In this document: one piece after another, positions 2,709 through 9,571 of the stretch
How the letters are laid out: every line of letters starts with the position of its first letter
Position numbering within the stretch: position 1 is the stretch's first letter
Assembly (NCBI GenBank): GCA_049967655.1
Contig: JBMFSH010000032.1
Span: 1-29,984, forward strand
Direction: 5' to 3'
Length of the DNA: 29,984 nucleotides
DNA from: Acidobacteriota bacterium
GTDB lineage: Bacteria; Acidobacteriota; UBA4820; DSQY01
Program-made: the position numbers and the translations under genes
The notes under the pieces: generated by a model
Told to the model about the DNA's origin: nothing
What the model saw: the letters and a program-made list of their open reading frames with translations, nothing else
Databases searched by the model: none

Positions 2709-5700
2709 CTACGCGGCGCCCTCGGCGGTGGCCTCCTCCCGCACGGGCTTGGGCACGACGATCCCACGGATGGCCCAGGCGCGGGAGATGCTGAGGGCGA
2801 GGCCGCCGCGGTCATCCTCCGCCTTGCCCTCCACCACCAGCGGCCTCCCGGACGTGATGAGCTCGCCGAAGGCCTGGTAGGCGCGCGGGAAAAAGACCAG
2901 CTCCGTGAGGCCCGTGGGGTCTTCGAGGGTGGCAAAGGCCATGCCCTCTTTCCCCTTGCGGGTGGAGATGCACTTGTAGGTGATGACTTGGCCCCAGACG
3001 CGCGCCGTTCTGCCCGCCCTCCCTGGCAGGTCTCCCGCGTGCGTGTAGCCCAGCCCCTCGGCCCACTCCAGCAGGGGCGTCAGCGGATGCGCGGTCACCG
3101 CGTAGCCGAGGGTACGCACTTCGCCGGCAAGGGTCTCGGCTAGGGAGAGGGATGTTGAATGGGCGTGAATCAGAGAGCCAGGGGGACAGGGAGACCAGGA
3201 GAAAATGTTTCTTCCGCTGTTTCTCTGGTTCTCTGTTTCCCTGTTTCTCGCCGTGCTGGTCCCTGCCTTCCCAGACCGCAACCAACTTATCAACACACCA
3301 CGATCTATCCCGAATCCATCGCACGCCCCCGCGCGAACGAGGATCTCTATCTCATCCGAACGGATGCGGCGGCGCAGGCGGGAGCAGAGGTCGGCGAAGG
3401 AGCGGTAGGGCCCCTCGCCGCGCTCCTCGAAGAGCGCATCCAACGCCGAGGGCCGAAGGCCGCGCAGGGTGAAGAAGCCGCAGCGGAGGAGGTTCCCCTT
3501 CCCCGCGAAGTCGCTGCCGGAGGCGTTCACGTCCGGCGGCAAGACCTGAAGCCCCCAGCGCCGCGCCTCCTCCACGTAGGCCGCCGTGCCGTAGAAGCCG
3601 CCCTGGTTGTTCACGAGCGCCGCGAAGAACTCGGCGGGGTGGTGCGCCTTCAGGTAGGCCACCTGGTAGGAGAGCTGGGCGAAGGAGGCGCTGTGGGCCT
3701 TGCAGAAGGCGTAGCCCGCGAAGGACTTGATCTGCGCCCAGAGCTCCGCCAGCACGAGAGCGGCGATGCCCCGCTCGCGGCCCTTCTCGAAGAAGGAGCC
3801 CGCGAGCGACTCCATCTCGGCTCGGCTTCGGTACTTGCCGCTCATGGCCCGGCGCAGGGAGTCCGCCTCGGCTAGCGAAAGCCCCACGAACTCGTGGGCC
3901 ACGCGGATCACGTCCTCCTGGTAGACCATGACGCCGAAGGTGTCCCTGAGGATGGGCTCCAGCTCCGGCGCCGCGTACTGGGGCGGCTCCTCGTCCAGCC
4001 GGCGCTTCACGTAGGCCTCCATCATGCCCGACTCGCTCACGCCGGGGCGGATGATGGAGGAGACCGCCGTCAGGTCTCGGAAGGTGCGCGTCTTGAGGCG
4101 CTGGAGCAGCAGGCGCATGCCGGGCGACTCGATGTAGAAGCAGCCCATGCTGCGGCCCTGCGAGAGGAGGGCGTTGGTCTGAGCATCGCTGTAGGTGCGC
4201 TCCGGGGGGAAAACGGGCGGAGAGGCGCCCGTGTGGTCCTTCACCGCCGCCACCGCGTCCACGAGCACGCCCAGGGAGCGGTTGCCTAAGAGGTCAATCT
4301 TCACCAGCCCGAGCTCCTCCACGTCAACCATGTCACACTGCGTGATGGCCACACCCTTGGCGGCCCGCTCCAGCGAGAGCCGCTGCGTGAGCGGGATGGG
4401 CGAGACCACCACGCCGCCGCAGTGGACCGAGAGATGGCGCGGGAAGCCGTCGATCCAGCGCGCCACCTCCAGCAGGTCCTGCCACGGCCGCTCCTTGAGG
4501 GGCGCCCGGCGCGACTCGGGCCGCGAGGCCAGGGCCTGTGTGAAGTGCTCGAAGGAGGTGTGCGGGATGGCCCGCGCGATGACGCCGATCTCCTCCTCGG
4601 GCACGCTCAGGGCCTTGCCCACCTCCCGGAAGCCCGAGCGCGCGGAGAAGGTGTTGTGCGTGGCGATCATGCAGACGTTCTCGTCGCCGTAGGTGTGGTA
4701 GACGTGCCGGATGACGTGGTCCCGCTCGCGCCAGGAGAAGTCCAGGTCGATGTCGGGCGGGTTCCGGCGGCCGGGGTTCAGGAAGCGCTCGAAGTAGAGG
4801 CCCTCCGCCACGGGGTCCACGTGCGTGAGGTAGAGGCAGTAGGAGACGAGGCTGGAGGCGCCCGAGCCGCGGCCGATGTTGGGGATGCCCTGGTCGCGCG
4901 CGAAGCGGGCGATGTCCTCCACCACCAGGAAATAGCCCGCGAAGCCCAGGCGCACGATGACCTCCAGCTCCCGCTCCAGCCTTTCGAGATAGACCATGGA
5001 GACGTTGCGCACGCGGCGCGCCAAACCCGCGTACGCGAGGGCCCGCAGCACGCCCTCCTCGGTTTCGCCGGGAGGCAGCGGCGGGTGGGGCAGGAGCCAG
5101 TCGCCCAGGGGCAGCGTCACGTCGCAGGAGGCCGCCAGCTCCCCGGCCGCCTCCAGCGCCGTGGCGCGGGCGCCCTCGCCCGCGAACCGCCGTTCCGCCT
5201 CCGCCGGCGAAAGCAGGTAGTCCCCCGGCCCCGCCTCGGGCGGCAGGTGCTTCACCGCCCGCAGGACCCGGTGGACGGCGTAGCCCGAGGGTTCGGGGAA
5301 GAAGGCCGCCGGCGCGGCGAGGCAGGGCAGGTGGAGCCAGTGGGCCGCGGCTCGGGCGTCCGCATCGGCCTTCGGGTTCCCCGACAGACGCGCGAAGAGG
5401 CTCCCCTCTTTCCCGCTCGCTCCCCCGGAGACCCCGCCACCCGCTTGTTTCAGGGCGTAGAGCAGCGTCACGTCCGAGGCCGCCAGCGCCACGTGCCCCC
5501 CCTCCGTAGCCGCCGCGCACTCTCCCACCCGGTCGAAGCGCTCCGGTTCCAGGTTGCGGCGCGTGATGAGGCGGCAGAGGCGGGAGTACCCCTCCAAATC
5601 TCGCGCAAAGGCGAACAGAGGGGACTTGGGGCTGGGGATCGGGAATTTATTGGGAACAAGGGGAGCTGAACCGTCAGCTTTGGCGGCGTTCTTTTGCCTC

Positions 5701-5939
5701 CGAATTCCCACATCCGAAATCCCAGATGTCGTCCCCGTGATCTCCGCTCCCAGGACCGGCCGGATGCCCACCGCCTTCGCCGCCTTGTAAAACCGCACCG
5801 CCGCGTAGAGCCCGTCGCGATCGCAGATTCCCGCCGCGGCGTGCCCCCTCTCCGCGCACGCCTTCGCCAGCGTCTCGGGCAGCATGGCCCCGGAGTAGAA
5901 AGTGAAGGCTGTCCGATCGACAAGCGGCACGAACGCCAT
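2709..5939 (-). CDS. dnaE2: DNA polymerase III alpha-family polymerase, second/error-prone type (DnaE2-like), ~1076 aa
   Basis: Degenerate PHP start (VDRTAFTFYSG), GRGSGASS, FERFLN, catalytic PDIDLDF, KIDLLG, VYQED, YAFCKAH and a C-terminal OB fold. Start ATG 5939 chosen by homology. The dnaE2 label rests on the degenerate PHP and the DUF72/S24-repressor context. Confidence 0.88.
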   Translation of the reverse strand: MAFVPLVDRTAFTFYSGAMLPETLAKACAERGHAAAGICDRDGLYAAVRFYKAAKAVGIRPVLGAEITGTTSGISDVGIRRQKNAAKADGSAPLVPNKFPIPSPKSPLFAFARDLEGYSRLCRLITRRNLEPERFDRVGECAAATEGGHVALAASDVTLLYALKQAGGGVSGGASGKEGSLFARLSGNPKADADARAAAHWLHLPCLAAPAAFFPEPSGYAVHRVLRAVKHLPPEAGPGDYLLSPAEAERRFAGEGARATALEAAGELAASCDVTLPLGDWLLPHPPLPPGETEEGVLRALAYAGLARRVRNVSMVYLERLERELEVIVRLGFAGYFLVVEDIARFARDQGIPNIGRGSGASSLVSYCLYLTHVDPVAEGLYFERFLNPGRRNPPDIDLDFSWRERDHVIRHVYHTYGDENVCMIATHNTFSARSGFREVGKALSVPEEEIGVIARAIPHTSFEHFTQALASRPESRRAPLKERPWQDLLEVARWIDGFPRHLSVHCGGVVVSPIPLTQRLSLERAAKGVAITQCDMVDVEELGLVKIDLLGNRSLGVLVDAVAAVKDHTGASPPVFPPERTYSDAQTNALLSQGRSMGCFYIESPGMRLLLQRLKTRTFRDLTAVSSIIRPGVSESGMMEAYVKRRLDEEPPQYAAPELEPILRDTFGVMVYQEDVIRVAHEFVGLSLAEADSLRRAMSGKYRSRAEMESLAGSFFEKGRERGIAALVLAELWAQIKSFAGYAFCKAHSASFAQLSYQVAYLKAHHPAEFFAALVNNQGGFYGTAAYVEEARRWGLQVLPPDVNASGSDFAGKGNLLRCGFFTLRGLRPSALDALFEERGEGPYRSFADLCSRLRRRIRSDEIEILVRAGACDGFGIDRGVLISWLRSGKAGTSTARNRETENQRNSGRNIFSWSPCPPGSLIHAHSTSLSLAETLAGEVRTLGYAVTAHPLTPLLEWAEGLGYTHAGDLPGRAGRTARVWGQVITYKCISTRKGKEGMAFATLEDPTGLTELVFFPRAYQAFGELITSGRPLVVEGKAEDDRGGLALSISRAWAIRGIVVPKPVREEATAEGAA

Positions 5940-6138
5940 GGCGCACCCGAGGAAGGCGGAGGTCCTAGGCTGGTGTCCATCCGAAAAAACCGTTTCCGCG
6001 TGGAGAGCGAAGGGTGGAGGGAGGAACGAAGCCCACGCAGGGTCAAACGCTGGGCTGGCGCTCCACTCTCCACTCTCAACCCTCCACCATTCCCATCTGG
6101 ACCTTCCGGATGGGGACAGGACTACTATCCGCATCCAC

Positions 6139-6167
6139 ATTATAGTCATACATGACCATTCTTTCAA
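6139..6167 (-). promoter_or_regulatory. sigma70 promoter for dnaE2 with operator palindrome in the spacer
   Basis: Minus strand TTGAAA-17 nt-TATAAT. TGGTCA-TGTA-TGACTA at 6143-6158 overlaps the -10. Confidence 0.85.
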
Positions 6168-6168
6168 G

Positions 6169-6204
6169 AAAAAAAAGAGGCGGGAGAAATCCAGTCTCCC
6201 GCCT
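6169..6204 (-). terminator. Intrinsic terminator
   Basis: Minus strand AGGCGGGAGA-CTGGATT-TCTCCCGCCT followed by CTTTTTTTT. Confidence 0.9.
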
Positions 6205-6639
6205 ATGAGGGGTTAGGGCTTCTACCAACGGACCCAGTCCGTGGTTTTTCAACAATGAGACTCAGCCGTTCACGATTCGTCACTCCCACTTCACAGCCGA
6301 GCCGAGAGACGGCCTTCGAAGAACGAGGCAGCCAGATGCTCCCCCGCTCCCCCTTGCTGGGGGGCAGATACGGGTGCCTTCGCATTGGTGGGGGGATTCT
6401 CTCTTCCGGGGCGTTCCTGGATGGTTGGCCAGGATGGCCAGAAGCACTCGTCCCTTCGCACGTATGATCCCCCCAACCGCAATGAAGTCTTGGCGGCCCG
6501 CAACGCGGCCTCCCTGAATGGGCTCCTACGAGCAAACGGCTTGCCAAGTCCAGGCCGCTTCGTCGTCTCAACCGAACCCTTTGAAAGGGAACAGGTTGCG
6601 GCTCCTATCCGCGGGCACCGTTCCGAGAAAGAGCGCCCC
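6169..6639 (-). ncRNA. Candidate large structured non-coding RNA (~470 nt), family not recognised
   Basis: Bounded by an ECF-like promoter and a strong terminator. Contains many nested helices, several needing G-U pairs that work only on the minus strand. ORFs across it do not look like proteins. Confidence 0.6.
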
Positions 6640-6644
6640 ATTCG

Positions 6645-6671
6645 TTACGTTCGGCGCCCACCATCGTTACC
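6645..6671 (-). promoter_or_regulatory. Putative ECF-sigma promoter
   Basis: Minus strand GGTAAC-16 nt-CGTAA fits the AAC/CGT ECF architecture. It lies 5 nt upstream of the first hairpin of the candidate RNA. Confidence 0.5.
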
Positions 6672-6849
6672 TTTACGTTACAGATCGCCAGCCCCGCGAC
6701 CTCGCCGAGGATTCTGGACCAGCGTGGGAACCGGAGTGGGGCCTGCTCCTCGGGCGCGCCTCGGGGCGGCGGTGCCGCGGCGCCGCCGAGGCGGGGACGA
6801 GAGACGTCATGGCGGAGGGATCTCGGCCGGCCGCGGCCGGCTTCCTTCC

Positions 6850-7746
6850 TCAGCCCACGCCCGCGAAGAGGGAGCGCTGAAAGACCGTATCGCTAACGGC
6901 CTCCAGCTCGGGGTAGGTTTCGATGAGATCGGGCGGGACAGGCTGCTTGAGGCCCGTGAGGGCAAACTGGACCTGGAAGGCGTTGGCCACGGCCTTGCCC
7001 CGGAAATGGTTGTTGAAGATGAGGATCACCTCCTTGGCCACGGTGGAGGCCTCCCGGACGGCGTTCACCCACGGAGCCAATTCGGCGGCGCTGTAAAGGT
7101 AGTTATACCGCTCGTCCCGGCCCGCCCCCTCGGTAAACCAGGCGGCGGCATTTCGGCCGTGGAAGCGGAAGTAGGCGAGATCCGAGGTAACGGCGCAGGT
7201 GGCTCCGAGGCAGTGGGCCAGGGCCGGCTGATCGATGTTGCAGAAGGCCACGCCGCACTCCCGCAGCATCCGCAGCACATCCTTGGAGCCCCACGAGGCG
7301 TGGCGCAGCTCCACCGCCAGCGGATAGGCGGAAAAGCGGCCGACGAGGGCCAGCAGGGTTTTCCGGTTCTCCTCCGTGTTTTTGAAGGACCAGGGCCACT
7401 GGATGAGCACGGCGGCCAGACGGTGGAAACGCACCAGGGGGTCCACCGCCCGGTGGAAGGCCCGCTCGTCCACCAGAGAGGCTTTGCGCGTATGGGTGAA
7501 CCCCTGGAAGAGCTTCACCGTGAAGCGGAAATCGGGGAGATCCGACACCTTGCGCACCCACTCGCCCACGACGAGGGGATCGGGGATCCGGTAGAAGGTG
7601 CTGTCCACCTCCACCGCGCCCAGGAGCCCCGCGAGGAAAGCGAGGGGGGCGAAACCTCGGCCGGCCCTCGGCGGGTACACCACCCCCTTCCAGTCGGGGT
7701 ACGTCCAGCCGGCTACACCGATGCGGAGGGCGGTTCGTTCCTTCAC
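6850..7746 (-). CDS. DUF72 (YecE-like) TIM-barrel protein
   Basis: Motifs IGVAGWTYPDWKG, VEVDSTFY, FRFTVK, AVELRHASW, YFRFHGRN, YNYLYS and FNNH. GTG start overlaps the upstream stop (GTGA). Confidence 0.92.
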   Translation of the reverse strand: MKERTALRIGVAGWTYPDWKGVVYPPRAGRGFAPLAFLAGLLGAVEVDSTFYRIPDPLVVGEWVRKVSDLPDFRFTVKLFQGFTHTRKASLVDERAFHRAVDPLVRFHRLAAVLIQWPWSFKNTEENRKTLLALVGRFSAYPLAVELRHASWGSKDVLRMLRECGVAFCNIDQPALAHCLGATCAVTSDLAYFRFHGRNAAAWFTEGAGRDERYNYLYSAAELAPWVNAVREASTVAKEVILIFNNHFRGKAVANAFQVQFALTGLKQPVPPDLIETYPELEAVSDTVFQRSLFAGVG

Positions 7747-8009: not shown

Positions 8010-8600
8010 CTATCTTTCCCTCACCCACACGATCTTGTAGGCGAAACGGACATCATGGGGCTCCACAACCACGGGCGGATAGAGGGGGTTCACCGATTCG
8101 AGGATGATCCGCCCGCCCGCCTCCCGGTAGCGCTTCACGTACTTCTCGCCGGTCATGAGGCCTATGACGGCATAGTCGCCGCTGATGGGTCTCTTGCGCG
8201 TGTCCACCATGACCACCTGGCCGTCCTCGTACTTGGGCACCATGCTGTCCCCCGCCACCTCCACGCCGAAGCCGTTGGGGTCCGTGAACTGCGGCGGGCG
8301 GGGCAGGAAGTACATGCCGCCACCGGCGGGGTAGCCCTGGTCGGTGAACTCCACCGCCTCCCCGGCGGAGGCAAAGGCCACGACCGGCACCTCCTCGGCC
8401 AGGGGGTTCTCCTGGGTGATCATGGAGAGGGGCACCTCCATGGCTTCGGCGATGGCTTCCAGGGAGCGGAGCGAGGGGGTGATGCGCCCCTTTTCGATGC
8501 GCGCGTAGTTCGGGGGGCTCCATCCCAGGCGCCGCGCCACCTCCGCCTGGGTCAACCCGAGAGACTTTCGAACCGATACGAGCTTCTTCGCAAAATCCAT
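8010..8600 (-). CDS. XRE/Cro-CI HTH plus peptidase S24 autocleaving repressor (LexA/CI-like), 196 aa
   Basis: HTH LTQAEVARRLGWSPPNYARIEKG, Ala-Gly site (ASAG), catalytic GDSM and YVKR. ATG 8600 follows a GGAGGG SD. Confidence 0.92.
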   Translation of the reverse strand: MDFAKKLVSVRKSLGLTQAEVARRLGWSPPNYARIEKGRITPSLRSLEAIAEAMEVPLSMITQENPLAEEVPVVAFASAGEAVEFTDQGYPAGGGMYFLPRPPQFTDPNGFGVEVAGDSMVPKYEDGQVVMVDTRKRPISGDYAVIGLMTGEKYVKRYREAGGRIILESVNPLYPPVVVEPHDVRFAYKIVWVRER

Positions 8601-8619
8601 GACCACCCTCCGCACTATC

Positions 8620-8648
8620 AATATAGTCAGCAATGACCACAGAGTCAA
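8620..8648 (-). promoter_or_regulatory. sigma70 promoter of the repressor with the same operator palindrome
   Basis: Minus strand TTGACT-17 nt-TATATT. TGGTCA-TTGC-TGACTA at 8624-8639. Confidence 0.85.
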
Positions 8649-8694
8649 GCAAGGGCACCGTGCGCGGGTTCCGCGATGGCGCGAGGAGATGGCG

Positions 8695-8783
8695 AGGGGA
8701 CAGGGACAGGAGGAGAGAGGAGAGAGGACAGCAGGAGGCGGACCGTTCCACGGCGTTTTTCCAAATCCCAAATCCCAAATCCC
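8695..8783. repeat. Heptamer-repeat cassette (GGGACAG-type arm, conserved core, CCAAATC arm)
   Basis: Core AGCAGGAGGCGGACCGTTCCACGGCGTTTTTC matches 23637-23668 at 28/32 nt. A degenerate copy lies at ~21903-21985. Confidence 0.85.
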
Positions 8784-8831
8784 TGTCGCGCTTTCCACGG
8801 CTATTCCCCTCCTCCATCGCGGGATTGGGGA
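8782..8831. repeat. 50-bp direct repeat, copy 2
   Basis: Matches 109-158 at 47/50 nt. Confidence 0.95.
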
Positions 8832-8893
8832 CTCACTGTTCACTTTTCACCCAGTGCACTATGATCTTTCCTGGCTGAGTGCGGAGGCGATCC

Positions 8894-9571
8894 ATGGAGA
8901 CGCAACAAGGCGAGCTTCAATTGGGGGATTTCATTAAGGGGCGGCTCCTCTTTCTCGAAGACTACTGCAAGCGGAGAGGGCTGGATTATCCGAAGATTCT
9001 GGCCGAGGTCCAGGCCCAAGCCCTCCGCCTGGCCAGCGCACCGGAGAAGGCCGAGTTCCTTAAGACCCGCCTCTTTTCGGGGATCGTGCTCTCCAGCTCC
9101 TACTTCCCCGACTGGGTAGACAAGGTCCTGCTCGAAGCCATCACCATCGCGCTCAAGGGGCCTGGAGCGCCCCTGCACACCACCTCGTCGCGCATGCCGT
9201 GTATCACCTTCGAGGCGGGGCGGTTCAACGCCCAACGGCAGGCGGACACGGTCTTCAGGGCCTACTTCTCGGGCAAGCGCCCGGAGGAGTGGCTGAAGAG
9301 CGGCTTCGTCCAGATCAACCGCAAGTGTTACGGAGACGCTTTCGCGGACCACATCCAGGTGGAGGAGCTGGGGCCCCGTCGCTTCCGGGTCAGCATCGAC
9401 AACACGGGCGTGGAAAAGGCCGACCAGATGGACTGCTCAACGGGCGTGGGGTACCTGTACGGCGCGCTCGAGAAGCTGGGGGTCGCGGGGCCGCTGGTGA
9501 CCCACGACCGGTGCGGGCTGGCTCCCGGCAGCCCCGATCGGATCTGCGTCTACGAGATCAGCTGGCGGTGA
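8894..9571 (+). CDS. Hypothetical protein with V4R-like C-terminus
   Basis: Coding-like codon usage and a GGAGG SD. C-terminal C..GYLYGALE..VTHDRC..CVYEISW pattern is typical of V4R-like domains. Confidence 0.75.
   Translation: METQQGELQLGDFIKGRLLFLEDYCKRRGLDYPKILAEVQAQALRLASAPEKAEFLKTRLFSGIVLSSSYFPDWVDKVLLEAITIALKGPGAPLHTTSSRMPCITFEAGRFNAQRQADTVFRAYFSGKRPEEWLKSGFVQINRKCYGDAFADHIQVEELGPRRFRVSIDNTGVEKADQMDCSTGVGYLYGALEKLGVAGPLVTHDRCGLAPGSPDRICVYEISWR

Follow-up and report, generated by a model that had tools for sequence, protein, structure and literature searches.

A candidate sigma-54-dependent small RNA gene with a conserved C-rich 3' end between the DUF72 and dnaE2 genes of an Acidobacteriota bacterium

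The stretch of DNA analysed here (the window, 29,984 nt) is contig JBMFSH010000032.1 of an Acidobacteriota bacterium whose genome is 3.1 Mb in size and ~67% G+C (genome G000, contig C32). Its DUF72 and dnaE2 genes, both on the minus strand, are separated by ~900 nt that hold no credible gene and in which the G+C content drops to 0.50-0.64. Most likely the minus strand of this gap is transcribed as a separate unit, so far unannotated, that appears to code for no protein. A first-pass annotation of the DNA had placed a large structured RNA gene here, and the core of that proposal, an independent minus-strand unit with its own terminator, non-coding and outside the curated RNA families, is supported by the comparisons below; its promoter, length and architecture have to be revised. 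From DUF72 towards dnaE2, the features are:

6850-7746, minus strand: DUF72 gene (Pfam DUF72, E 3e-52).
6644-6682, minus strand: enhancer-like region, by its sequence, with the GTAAC repeats TGTAAC (6682-6677), GGTAAC (6671-6666) and CGTAAC (6649-6644).
6532-6547, minus strand: candidate sigma-54 promoter TTGGCA-AGCCGT-TTGC (-24 GG, -12 GC), from motif and conservation.
6170-6520, minus strand: predicted non-coding transcript of ~350 nt, from promoter geometry and terminator.
6468-6478, minus strand: Shine-Dalgarno-like G-rich box GGUUGGGGGGA, by its sequence, followed by a GUG at 6461-6459.
6277-6461, minus strand: unconstrained middle part, from divergence, containing a 56-aa open reading frame (ORF) at 6291-6461.
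6170-6277, minus strand: constrained 3' domain, from divergence; the fold of 6169-6277 has a z-score of -2.0.
6228-6242, minus strand: hairpin ACGGAC-UGG-GUCCGU, invariant in 4/4 sequences and hence uninformative on pairing.
6207-6219, minus strand: conserved C-rich tract GCCCUAACCCCUC, a candidate seed of the anti-Shine-Dalgarno type.
6169-6204, minus strand: intrinsic terminator, stem-loop 6204-6178 and U8 tail, core GGCGGGAGA/UCUCCCGCC.
2709-5939, minus strand: dnaE2, ATG at 5939, with five DNA polymerase III alpha domains.

Only four long forms of the unit were found in the searched data, those of G000, G001, G002 and the metagenome locus L113, which are 81-93% identical and make up the structural alignment. 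The 3' end recurs more widely, as a module in which GCCCUAACCCCUC is followed after 3-4 nt by the stem GGCGGGAG/CUCCCGCC and a U run.

The best promoter candidate for the RNA is a sigma-54 -24/-12 element. The minus strand at 6547-6531 reads TTGGCAAGCCGTTTGCT, with TGGCA-N6-TTGC at 6546-6532. Genome-wide, 31 sites fit this pattern, whereas spacers of N5, N7, N8 and N9 give 2, 4, 7 and 8 sites, respectively, an excess (31 versus 2-8) which suggests that most TGGCA-N6-TTGC sites in the genome are real promoters. An ORF of at least 80 aa starts 21-123 nt downstream at 29 of the 30 other sites and 259 nt downstream at the remaining one; from the 6546 site, the next such ORF lies 379 nt downstream, past the terminator. 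The promoter core TTGGCAAGCCGTTTGC is invariant in all four long forms, and TGGC-N7-TTGC stands upstream of the module in 13/13 stand-alone loci examined, from three genera and metagenomes. Despite this equivalent promoter, the RNA bodies between promoter and module are not alignable across genera. The genome carries one copy of rpoN (Sigma54_DBD, 213.7 bits) and 27 PF00158 matches for the activators that act with it (23 reach E<=1e-39, giving ~23 strong genes), and the RNA would be expected to depend on sigma-54. Two more TGGCA-N6-TTGC sites lie in the window, at 2160 and 11616, both on the plus strand, one of them 21 nt ahead of an ORF overlapping the dnaE2 3' end on the opposite strand and the other between two methionine-synthase-type genes.

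Transcription had earlier been assigned to an extracytoplasmic function (ECF)-like motif, GGTAAC-N16-CGTAA, at 6671-6645. The motif itself is present, but as a promoter it finds no favour among the relatives: GGTAAC is changed to GGTGAC in 3/3 of them, and CGTAA to GGTAA in L113. Its letters form part of the GTAAC repeats at -98 to -135 relative to the sigma-54 promoter, a region that may instead be an activator-binding site. In 15/17 related sigma-54 promoters, of the RNA and of a peptidase gene described below, TGTNAC/GTNACA precedes the -24 element by 90-189 nt (raw counts without a control set), and in seven of those, including G000, G001, M113, M116, G008 and G004, it lies at -135 to -137. 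GTAAC occurs in 14/17 upstream regions and is the sole A+T-containing 5-mer among the most shared ones.

The start of the RNA is predicted near 6520, 12 nt downstream of the -12 GC, give or take a few nucleotides, which gives an RNA of ~350 nt; the proposed ~470 nt and 5' end near 6639 are unsupported. The other end of the unit stands as first drawn. The terminator is real, with 10 pairs (7 G-C), a 7-nt loop and U8, and is kept in relatives: it is present in 16/16 sequences, where seven of nine stem pairs never vary and the loop differs.

Sequence constraint is concentrated in the promoter and in the 3' end of this unit. With synonymous differences in DUF72 as the neutral proxy (0.05-0.17 among the four long forms), pairwise divergence is 0.05-0.20 over the 5' 61 nt, 0.10-0.24 over the middle 185 nt and 0.00-0.06 over the 3' 100 nt. 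The middle part thus evolves at or above the synonymous rate, and the 3' domain, with 7/100 columns variable, diverges several-fold less than the proxy. This pattern points to selection on the promoter and 3' end and not on the body, and the 3' domain (6170-6277) is probably the functional part, possibly released from the longer transcript by processing. Within it, GCCCUAACCCCUC is invariant save for one C/U among 13 aligned sequences from three genera and metagenomes. In the predicted fold of the window's 3' domain the tract is largely unpaired, with 4/13 bases in a weak 5-pair hairpin.

The module has a narrow phylogenetic range. Of 61 related genomes searched by BLASTN with 6150-6700, 12 gave a match, the source genome included; beyond that genome there are two full-length matches, from the same genus at 87%, and the other nine cover the last ~50-75 nt only. 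Common to the three genera involved are GCCCUAACCCCUC and the terminator alone. Covariance models were built from 6 of 17 distinct sequences (the first) and from 16 matches (the second), leaving out two MAFFT module alignments in which the terminator or tract was misaligned. A model from genus g3 alone scores the window at 45.2 bits (E 8e-10). The second model finds one strong copy (58.9-86 bits) in 12/29 genomes of the order, all within genera g1, g3 and g6 of one Thermoanaerobaculia family, and everything else scores 30.4 bits or less. Matches in genus g4 (G014, G022; 26-30 bits) are ordinary terminators behind ORFs and not members of the family. Scanned for the exact pattern, 185,579 species genomes yielded 96 matches, 10 of which have the full terminator and are true copies, the other 86 being chance matches in unrelated phyla; a scan of metagenomes gave nine.

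These copies occur in two settings. In one the module belongs to a sigma-54 RNA gene that stands alone behind DUF72, and in the other it forms the 3' end of a sigma-54-driven mRNA for an S8 peptidase. Sister genomes have short stand-alone forms of 125-250 nt, and the window is best read as carrying an expanded version of the stand-alone form, without a peptidase gene.

We favour, with a probability of about 0.55, the interpretation that the locus encodes a sigma-54-dependent, C-rich (anti-Shine-Dalgarno) base-pairing small RNA (sRNA) that acts through its 3' ~100 nt. An enhancer-binding activator encoded outside the window would bind the GTAAC repeats at 6682-6644 and open the sigma-54 promoter at 6547-6532. 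Transcription from ~6520 to the terminator at 6204-6169 would then yield an RNA of ~350 nt, the working part of which would be its last ~100 nt: the small hairpin, the GCCCUAACCCCUC tract and the terminator with its U tail. Processing of the ~350-nt RNA may first release this 3' part. Translation would be blocked where the C-rich tract base-pairs with G-rich ribosome-binding sites (GGGGUUAGGG-like, GGGGUUAGG-type), probably with the help of Hfq. The genome encodes Hfq (65.2 bits), and GCCCUAACCCCUC is complementary to ribosome-binding sites of the GGUUAGGG type, among them the box that the RNA itself carries in its 5' part.

A second locus in the same genome, G000:C4:122341-122640 (L163), has tandem sigma-54 promoters ~220 nt apart (122341 and 122559), each followed by a C-rich stretch of ~60 nt (CAUACCUCCCUCCAUACCUCC; CCCCUCCUCCCUUCCAUUCCUCC) and a terminator. 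These stretches are candidate ~60-nt anti-Shine-Dalgarno sRNAs, which suggests that the sRNA design recurs in this genome. In Rfam this tandem locus has no match at E<=0.1 and nothing meaningful at E<=1.

Several observations weigh against the sRNA interpretation. The RNA itself, with its start, end, processing and expression, is a prediction from the DNA. No activator gene lies near the locus (0/27 PF00158 matches on contig C32 and 0/19 window ORFs). About half of the window's RNA is unconstrained, which would fit a relic equally well as a function confined to the 3' end. At start codons, 8-mers complementary to the tract are not enriched, with 67/229 on the target strand versus 54/229 for the tract itself; reversed controls gave 124-159 of 582. 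Predicted folds of the short forms from three other genera do not expose the tract but pair it with a G-rich segment that lies upstream. Finally, the duplex between the G-rich box and the C-rich tract has no advantage over dinucleotide shuffles, of which a share of 0.67 does at least as well for the window and 0.01-0.99 across the 13 sequences compared.

The main rival, which we consider rather improbable, is that the locus is a relic of a sigma-54-driven S8 peptidase unit, left with promoter, leader and 3' end after loss of the coding region and perhaps still transcribed. Its role would then be only termination before dnaE2, and the C-rich tract would be a former cis element, pairing for example with the unit's own ribosome-binding site. 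The arrangement in two relatives is what gives this idea its force. In G003 (same genus) and G008 (genus g6), an S8 subtilase gene of 855-878 aa lies between DUF72 and the module, filling the space between promoter/GGTTRGGG box and module; it has its own sigma-54 promoter and a GGTTRGGG box upstream, which serves as its ribosome-binding site, and ends ~100-130 nt before the tract. Counted by eye, GGTT(A/G)GGG stands 53-59 nt after the -12 element in G000, G003, G008 and G020. A terminator held in common with a coding mRNA, a feature of sRNAs derived from 3' untranslated regions, is thus found in G003 and G008 and not in the window. A search of 25 family genomes identified the peptidase orthologue in six (G003, G008, G012, G013, G005 and G004) and not in G000, G001 or G002. 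The neutral drift of the middle 185 nt, the dN/dS near 1 of the ORF behind the box (see below) and the pairing that RNAalifold draws between the G-rich box GGUUGGGGGGA and CCCUAACC of the 3' module also suit a unit that has lost its gene.

Against this, no trace of the peptidase is seen at the window locus: TBLASTN with the G003 and G008 proteins gave a best E of 4.1, and BLASTN at word size 7 of the window RNA body against the peptidase gene and leader matched the 3' module alone. The promoter and the 3' 100 nt diverge several-fold less than the synonymous rate in the four long forms. Promoter and module persist without an intervening coding region in 10/12 genomes, among them G017, G021 and G009, from which the peptidase is absent, and such persistence would be unexpected for a dead relic. 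A sigma-54 promoter precedes the peptidase gene in G003, G008, G012, G004 and G013, and in G013 the RNA and the peptidase are each under their own: the order there is DUF72, sigma-54 promoter, a 128-nt RNA with module and terminator, a second sigma-54 promoter, and peptidase. G005 probably shares this order across a contig break. In G004 (genus g2; L149 ~4646-4760), the peptidase mRNA has a leader carrying GGAGGG and ends in a C-rich tract, CUUCCCUCCUUUC, followed by a GGGCGGGG/CUCCGCCC terminator. It is possible that this end is a diverged equivalent of the module, although the covariance model does not detect it.

It is possible, and we put it forward tentatively, that a single module of sigma-54 promoter, G-rich box, C-rich tract and terminator exists in two states, as the ends of the mRNA for a secreted-type S8 peptidase and as a free-standing sRNA. 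The window RNA would then be the mRNA minus its coding region, whittled down to a functional 3' end, and the sRNA would keep control over GGGGUUAGGG-type ribosome-binding sites.

That the RNA is instead the mRNA of a small protein of 56-63 aa, starting at GUG 6461 behind GGUUGGGGGGA, is very unlikely. All four long forms keep this frame open and free of indels, behind a strong Shine-Dalgarno-like box, and in the genus g6 forms, read by eye, a 38-39-aa ORF starts and stops at the same positions. Yet variable sites number 25, 18 and 17 at codon positions 1, 2 and 3, without a third-position bias, and dN/dS is 0.62-1.49, versus 0.06-0.13 for the adjacent DUF72. The window's own copy of the frame stops seven codons early. 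The g6 peptides differ almost wholly, by eye, from each other and from those of g1, and genus g3 is free of the ORF. None of the ORFs in the gap (116 aa, 6291-6641; 122 aa, 6203-6571; 56 aa, 6291-6461; and two on the plus strand) matches a Pfam family at E<=1, and no relative of the 116-aa ORF appears at E<=0.001. Neither the Pfam scan nor the search for relatives, therefore, disturbs the earlier conclusion that no protein gene lies between DUF72 and dnaE2; conservation of the codon type, which would have spoken for a protein, was not found, and the GUG 6461 frame is concluded not to be a protein gene.

The structural claims for the RNA fare less well. All of the helices listed in the first-pass annotation can be drawn in this sequence, but they do not rise above chance. 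Minus-strand folds of 6169-6520 and 6169-6671 have minimum free energy z-scores of -1.02 and -1.13 against dinucleotide shuffles, 18/100 of which fold at least equally well for either segment. The 73 proposed pairs are 78.8% paired in the four-sequence alignment, equal to the shuffle mean of 78.8%; one pair is changed on both sides, and the RNAalifold covariation term is +0.69 kcal/mol. In relatives that are 81-88% identical, seven of the 12 proposed helices are paired at 80% or less. These include the 5' hairpin (70.8%), the 'perfect 9-bp' helix (63.9%) and its extension (60%), CCUGG/CCAGG (60%) and CCCCC/GGGGG (40%). The helices that hold are uninformative because they do not vary: ACGGAC/GUCCGU, the terminator and most of the long-range helix 6599-6604/6299-6304, which is 95.8% paired and has 5/6 pairs that never vary. 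AAGCGGC/GCCGTTT is the exception among them, and it coincides in part with the sigma-54 promoter, its 5' arm lying before the likely start. A multi-domain architecture is thus not borne out, helices being broken in close relatives and covariation lacking.

The statement that the RNA is outside known families holds: there are no Rfam matches at gathering score over the whole window or in 11 related loci, and at E<=10 over 5800-7000 only microRNA (miRNA) and internal ribosome entry site noise far below the cut-offs, the sub-threshold miRNA matches arising from an insert in the dnaE2 leader that is described below. A ~470-nt multi-domain RNA of the OLE/ROOL type with an ECF-type promoter at 6671-6645, for all that its helices can be drawn, one long-range helix is well paired and it would lie outside known families, is barely credible given the shuffle-level folding and pairing, the single covarying pair, the unconserved hexamers, a body that is unalignable outside the genus and a middle part that drifts neutrally.

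Whether the RNA is tied to the mutagenesis genes was left open at first, and a functional tie to dnaE2 now appears unlikely, because the module's terminator is not followed by a dnaE2 promoter in the other genera or in L113. The constant neighbour of the module is DUF72, joined in some genomes by the S8 peptidase gene; homologues therefore stay beside DUF72 as had been asked of them, but beside dnaE2 they do not in other genera and L113. In the window, a near-consensus sigma-70 promoter, TTGAAA-17-TATAAT (11/12), lies between terminator and dnaE2 at 6139-6167 on the minus strand. The terminator and this separate promoter isolate dnaE2, so the DUF72-dnaE2 gap should not be annotated as belonging to a mutagenesis operon.

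The spacer and the start of the -10 box of the sigma-70 promoter are covered by a palindrome at 6144-6157 (GGTCATGTATGACT in the window, TAGTCATATATGACTA in G001 and G002), which is kept in G001, G002 and G003 and looks like a repressor operator. Upstream of dnaE2 lie DUF72, an HTH_3/Peptidase_S24 (LexA-like) gene at 8010-8843, and a 170-aa ORF at 8840-9352 without a Pfam match, and the HTH_3/Peptidase_S24 protein is perhaps the repressor acting at this palindrome. A search of the window for a second LexA-type operator gave a lone match that is weak (two mismatches) and intragenic, and 7/100 shuffles gave at least two matches. No imuA/imuB partner for dnaE2 is recognisable among the 19 window ORFs scanned. 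The dnaE2 leader also carries a hairpin-forming insert of ~130 nt (5985-6130) that is missing in G001 and G002. It is a dispersed repeat with at least six longer copies, 75-87% identical, on other G000 contigs, and by these features is like a miniature inverted-repeat transposable element.

The RNA-gene candidate is of a known kind and forms a new family, restricted to three genera and without a match in Rfam. A new class of large structured RNA is not supported and the OLE/ROOL-like claim should be dropped. A limited search of the literature on sigma-54 small RNAs in Acidobacteria gave unrelated work and no description of this RNA. If the transcript is confirmed, it would add an undescribed sRNA family for the Acidobacteriota, and it would provide a comparative series for the origin of sRNA genes, with short stand-alone forms, long stand-alone forms with a drifting body, and forms at an mRNA 3' end. 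If the two-state idea is also true, this would be a natural series of an sRNA gene born from, or exchanged with, the untranslated ends of a messenger.

Likeness to the OLE and ROOL RNAs extends to a size range of hundreds of nucleotides and a lack of coding capacity, and to nothing more, since the window RNA has no covariance-model match, conserved multi-helix architecture or stability signal and is conserved at its 3' end only. The closest counterparts in function are CJnc230/FlmE, taken up below, and Qrr1-5 of Vibrio, sRNAs driven by sigma-54 and LuxO. The Qrr sRNAs resemble the window RNA in their sigma-54 promoter with an upstream activator site, their nature as short non-coding RNAs with an intrinsic terminator, and the presumed Hfq-assisted pairing at initiation regions. 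The window RNA differs in having no sequence or Rfam match to them and no adjacent activator gene, in the position of its conserved tract directly before the terminator, and in its ~350-nt length with a drifting body. The C-rich anti-Shine-Dalgarno sRNAs of the Cuckoo/alpha-r14 group (CcsR, NfeR1) likewise have a conserved C-rich tract able to pair with G-rich ribosome-binding sites. In the window, however, there is one linear tract before the terminator rather than CCUCCUCCC loops, the promoter is of another type and there is no Rfam match.

Small RNAs derived from mRNA 3' ends, the subject of a review (PMC9438474), form a further group. CJnc230/FlmE of Campylobacter jejuni is reported to be an sRNA processed from the 3' end of an RpoN-dependent mRNA (PMC11187230). 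The window RNA differs in being a stand-alone RNA with no coding region, the sequences are unrelated and processing is here only proposed; the parallel is with G003 and G008, where the module lies at the 3' end of the sigma-54-driven S8 peptidase mRNA.

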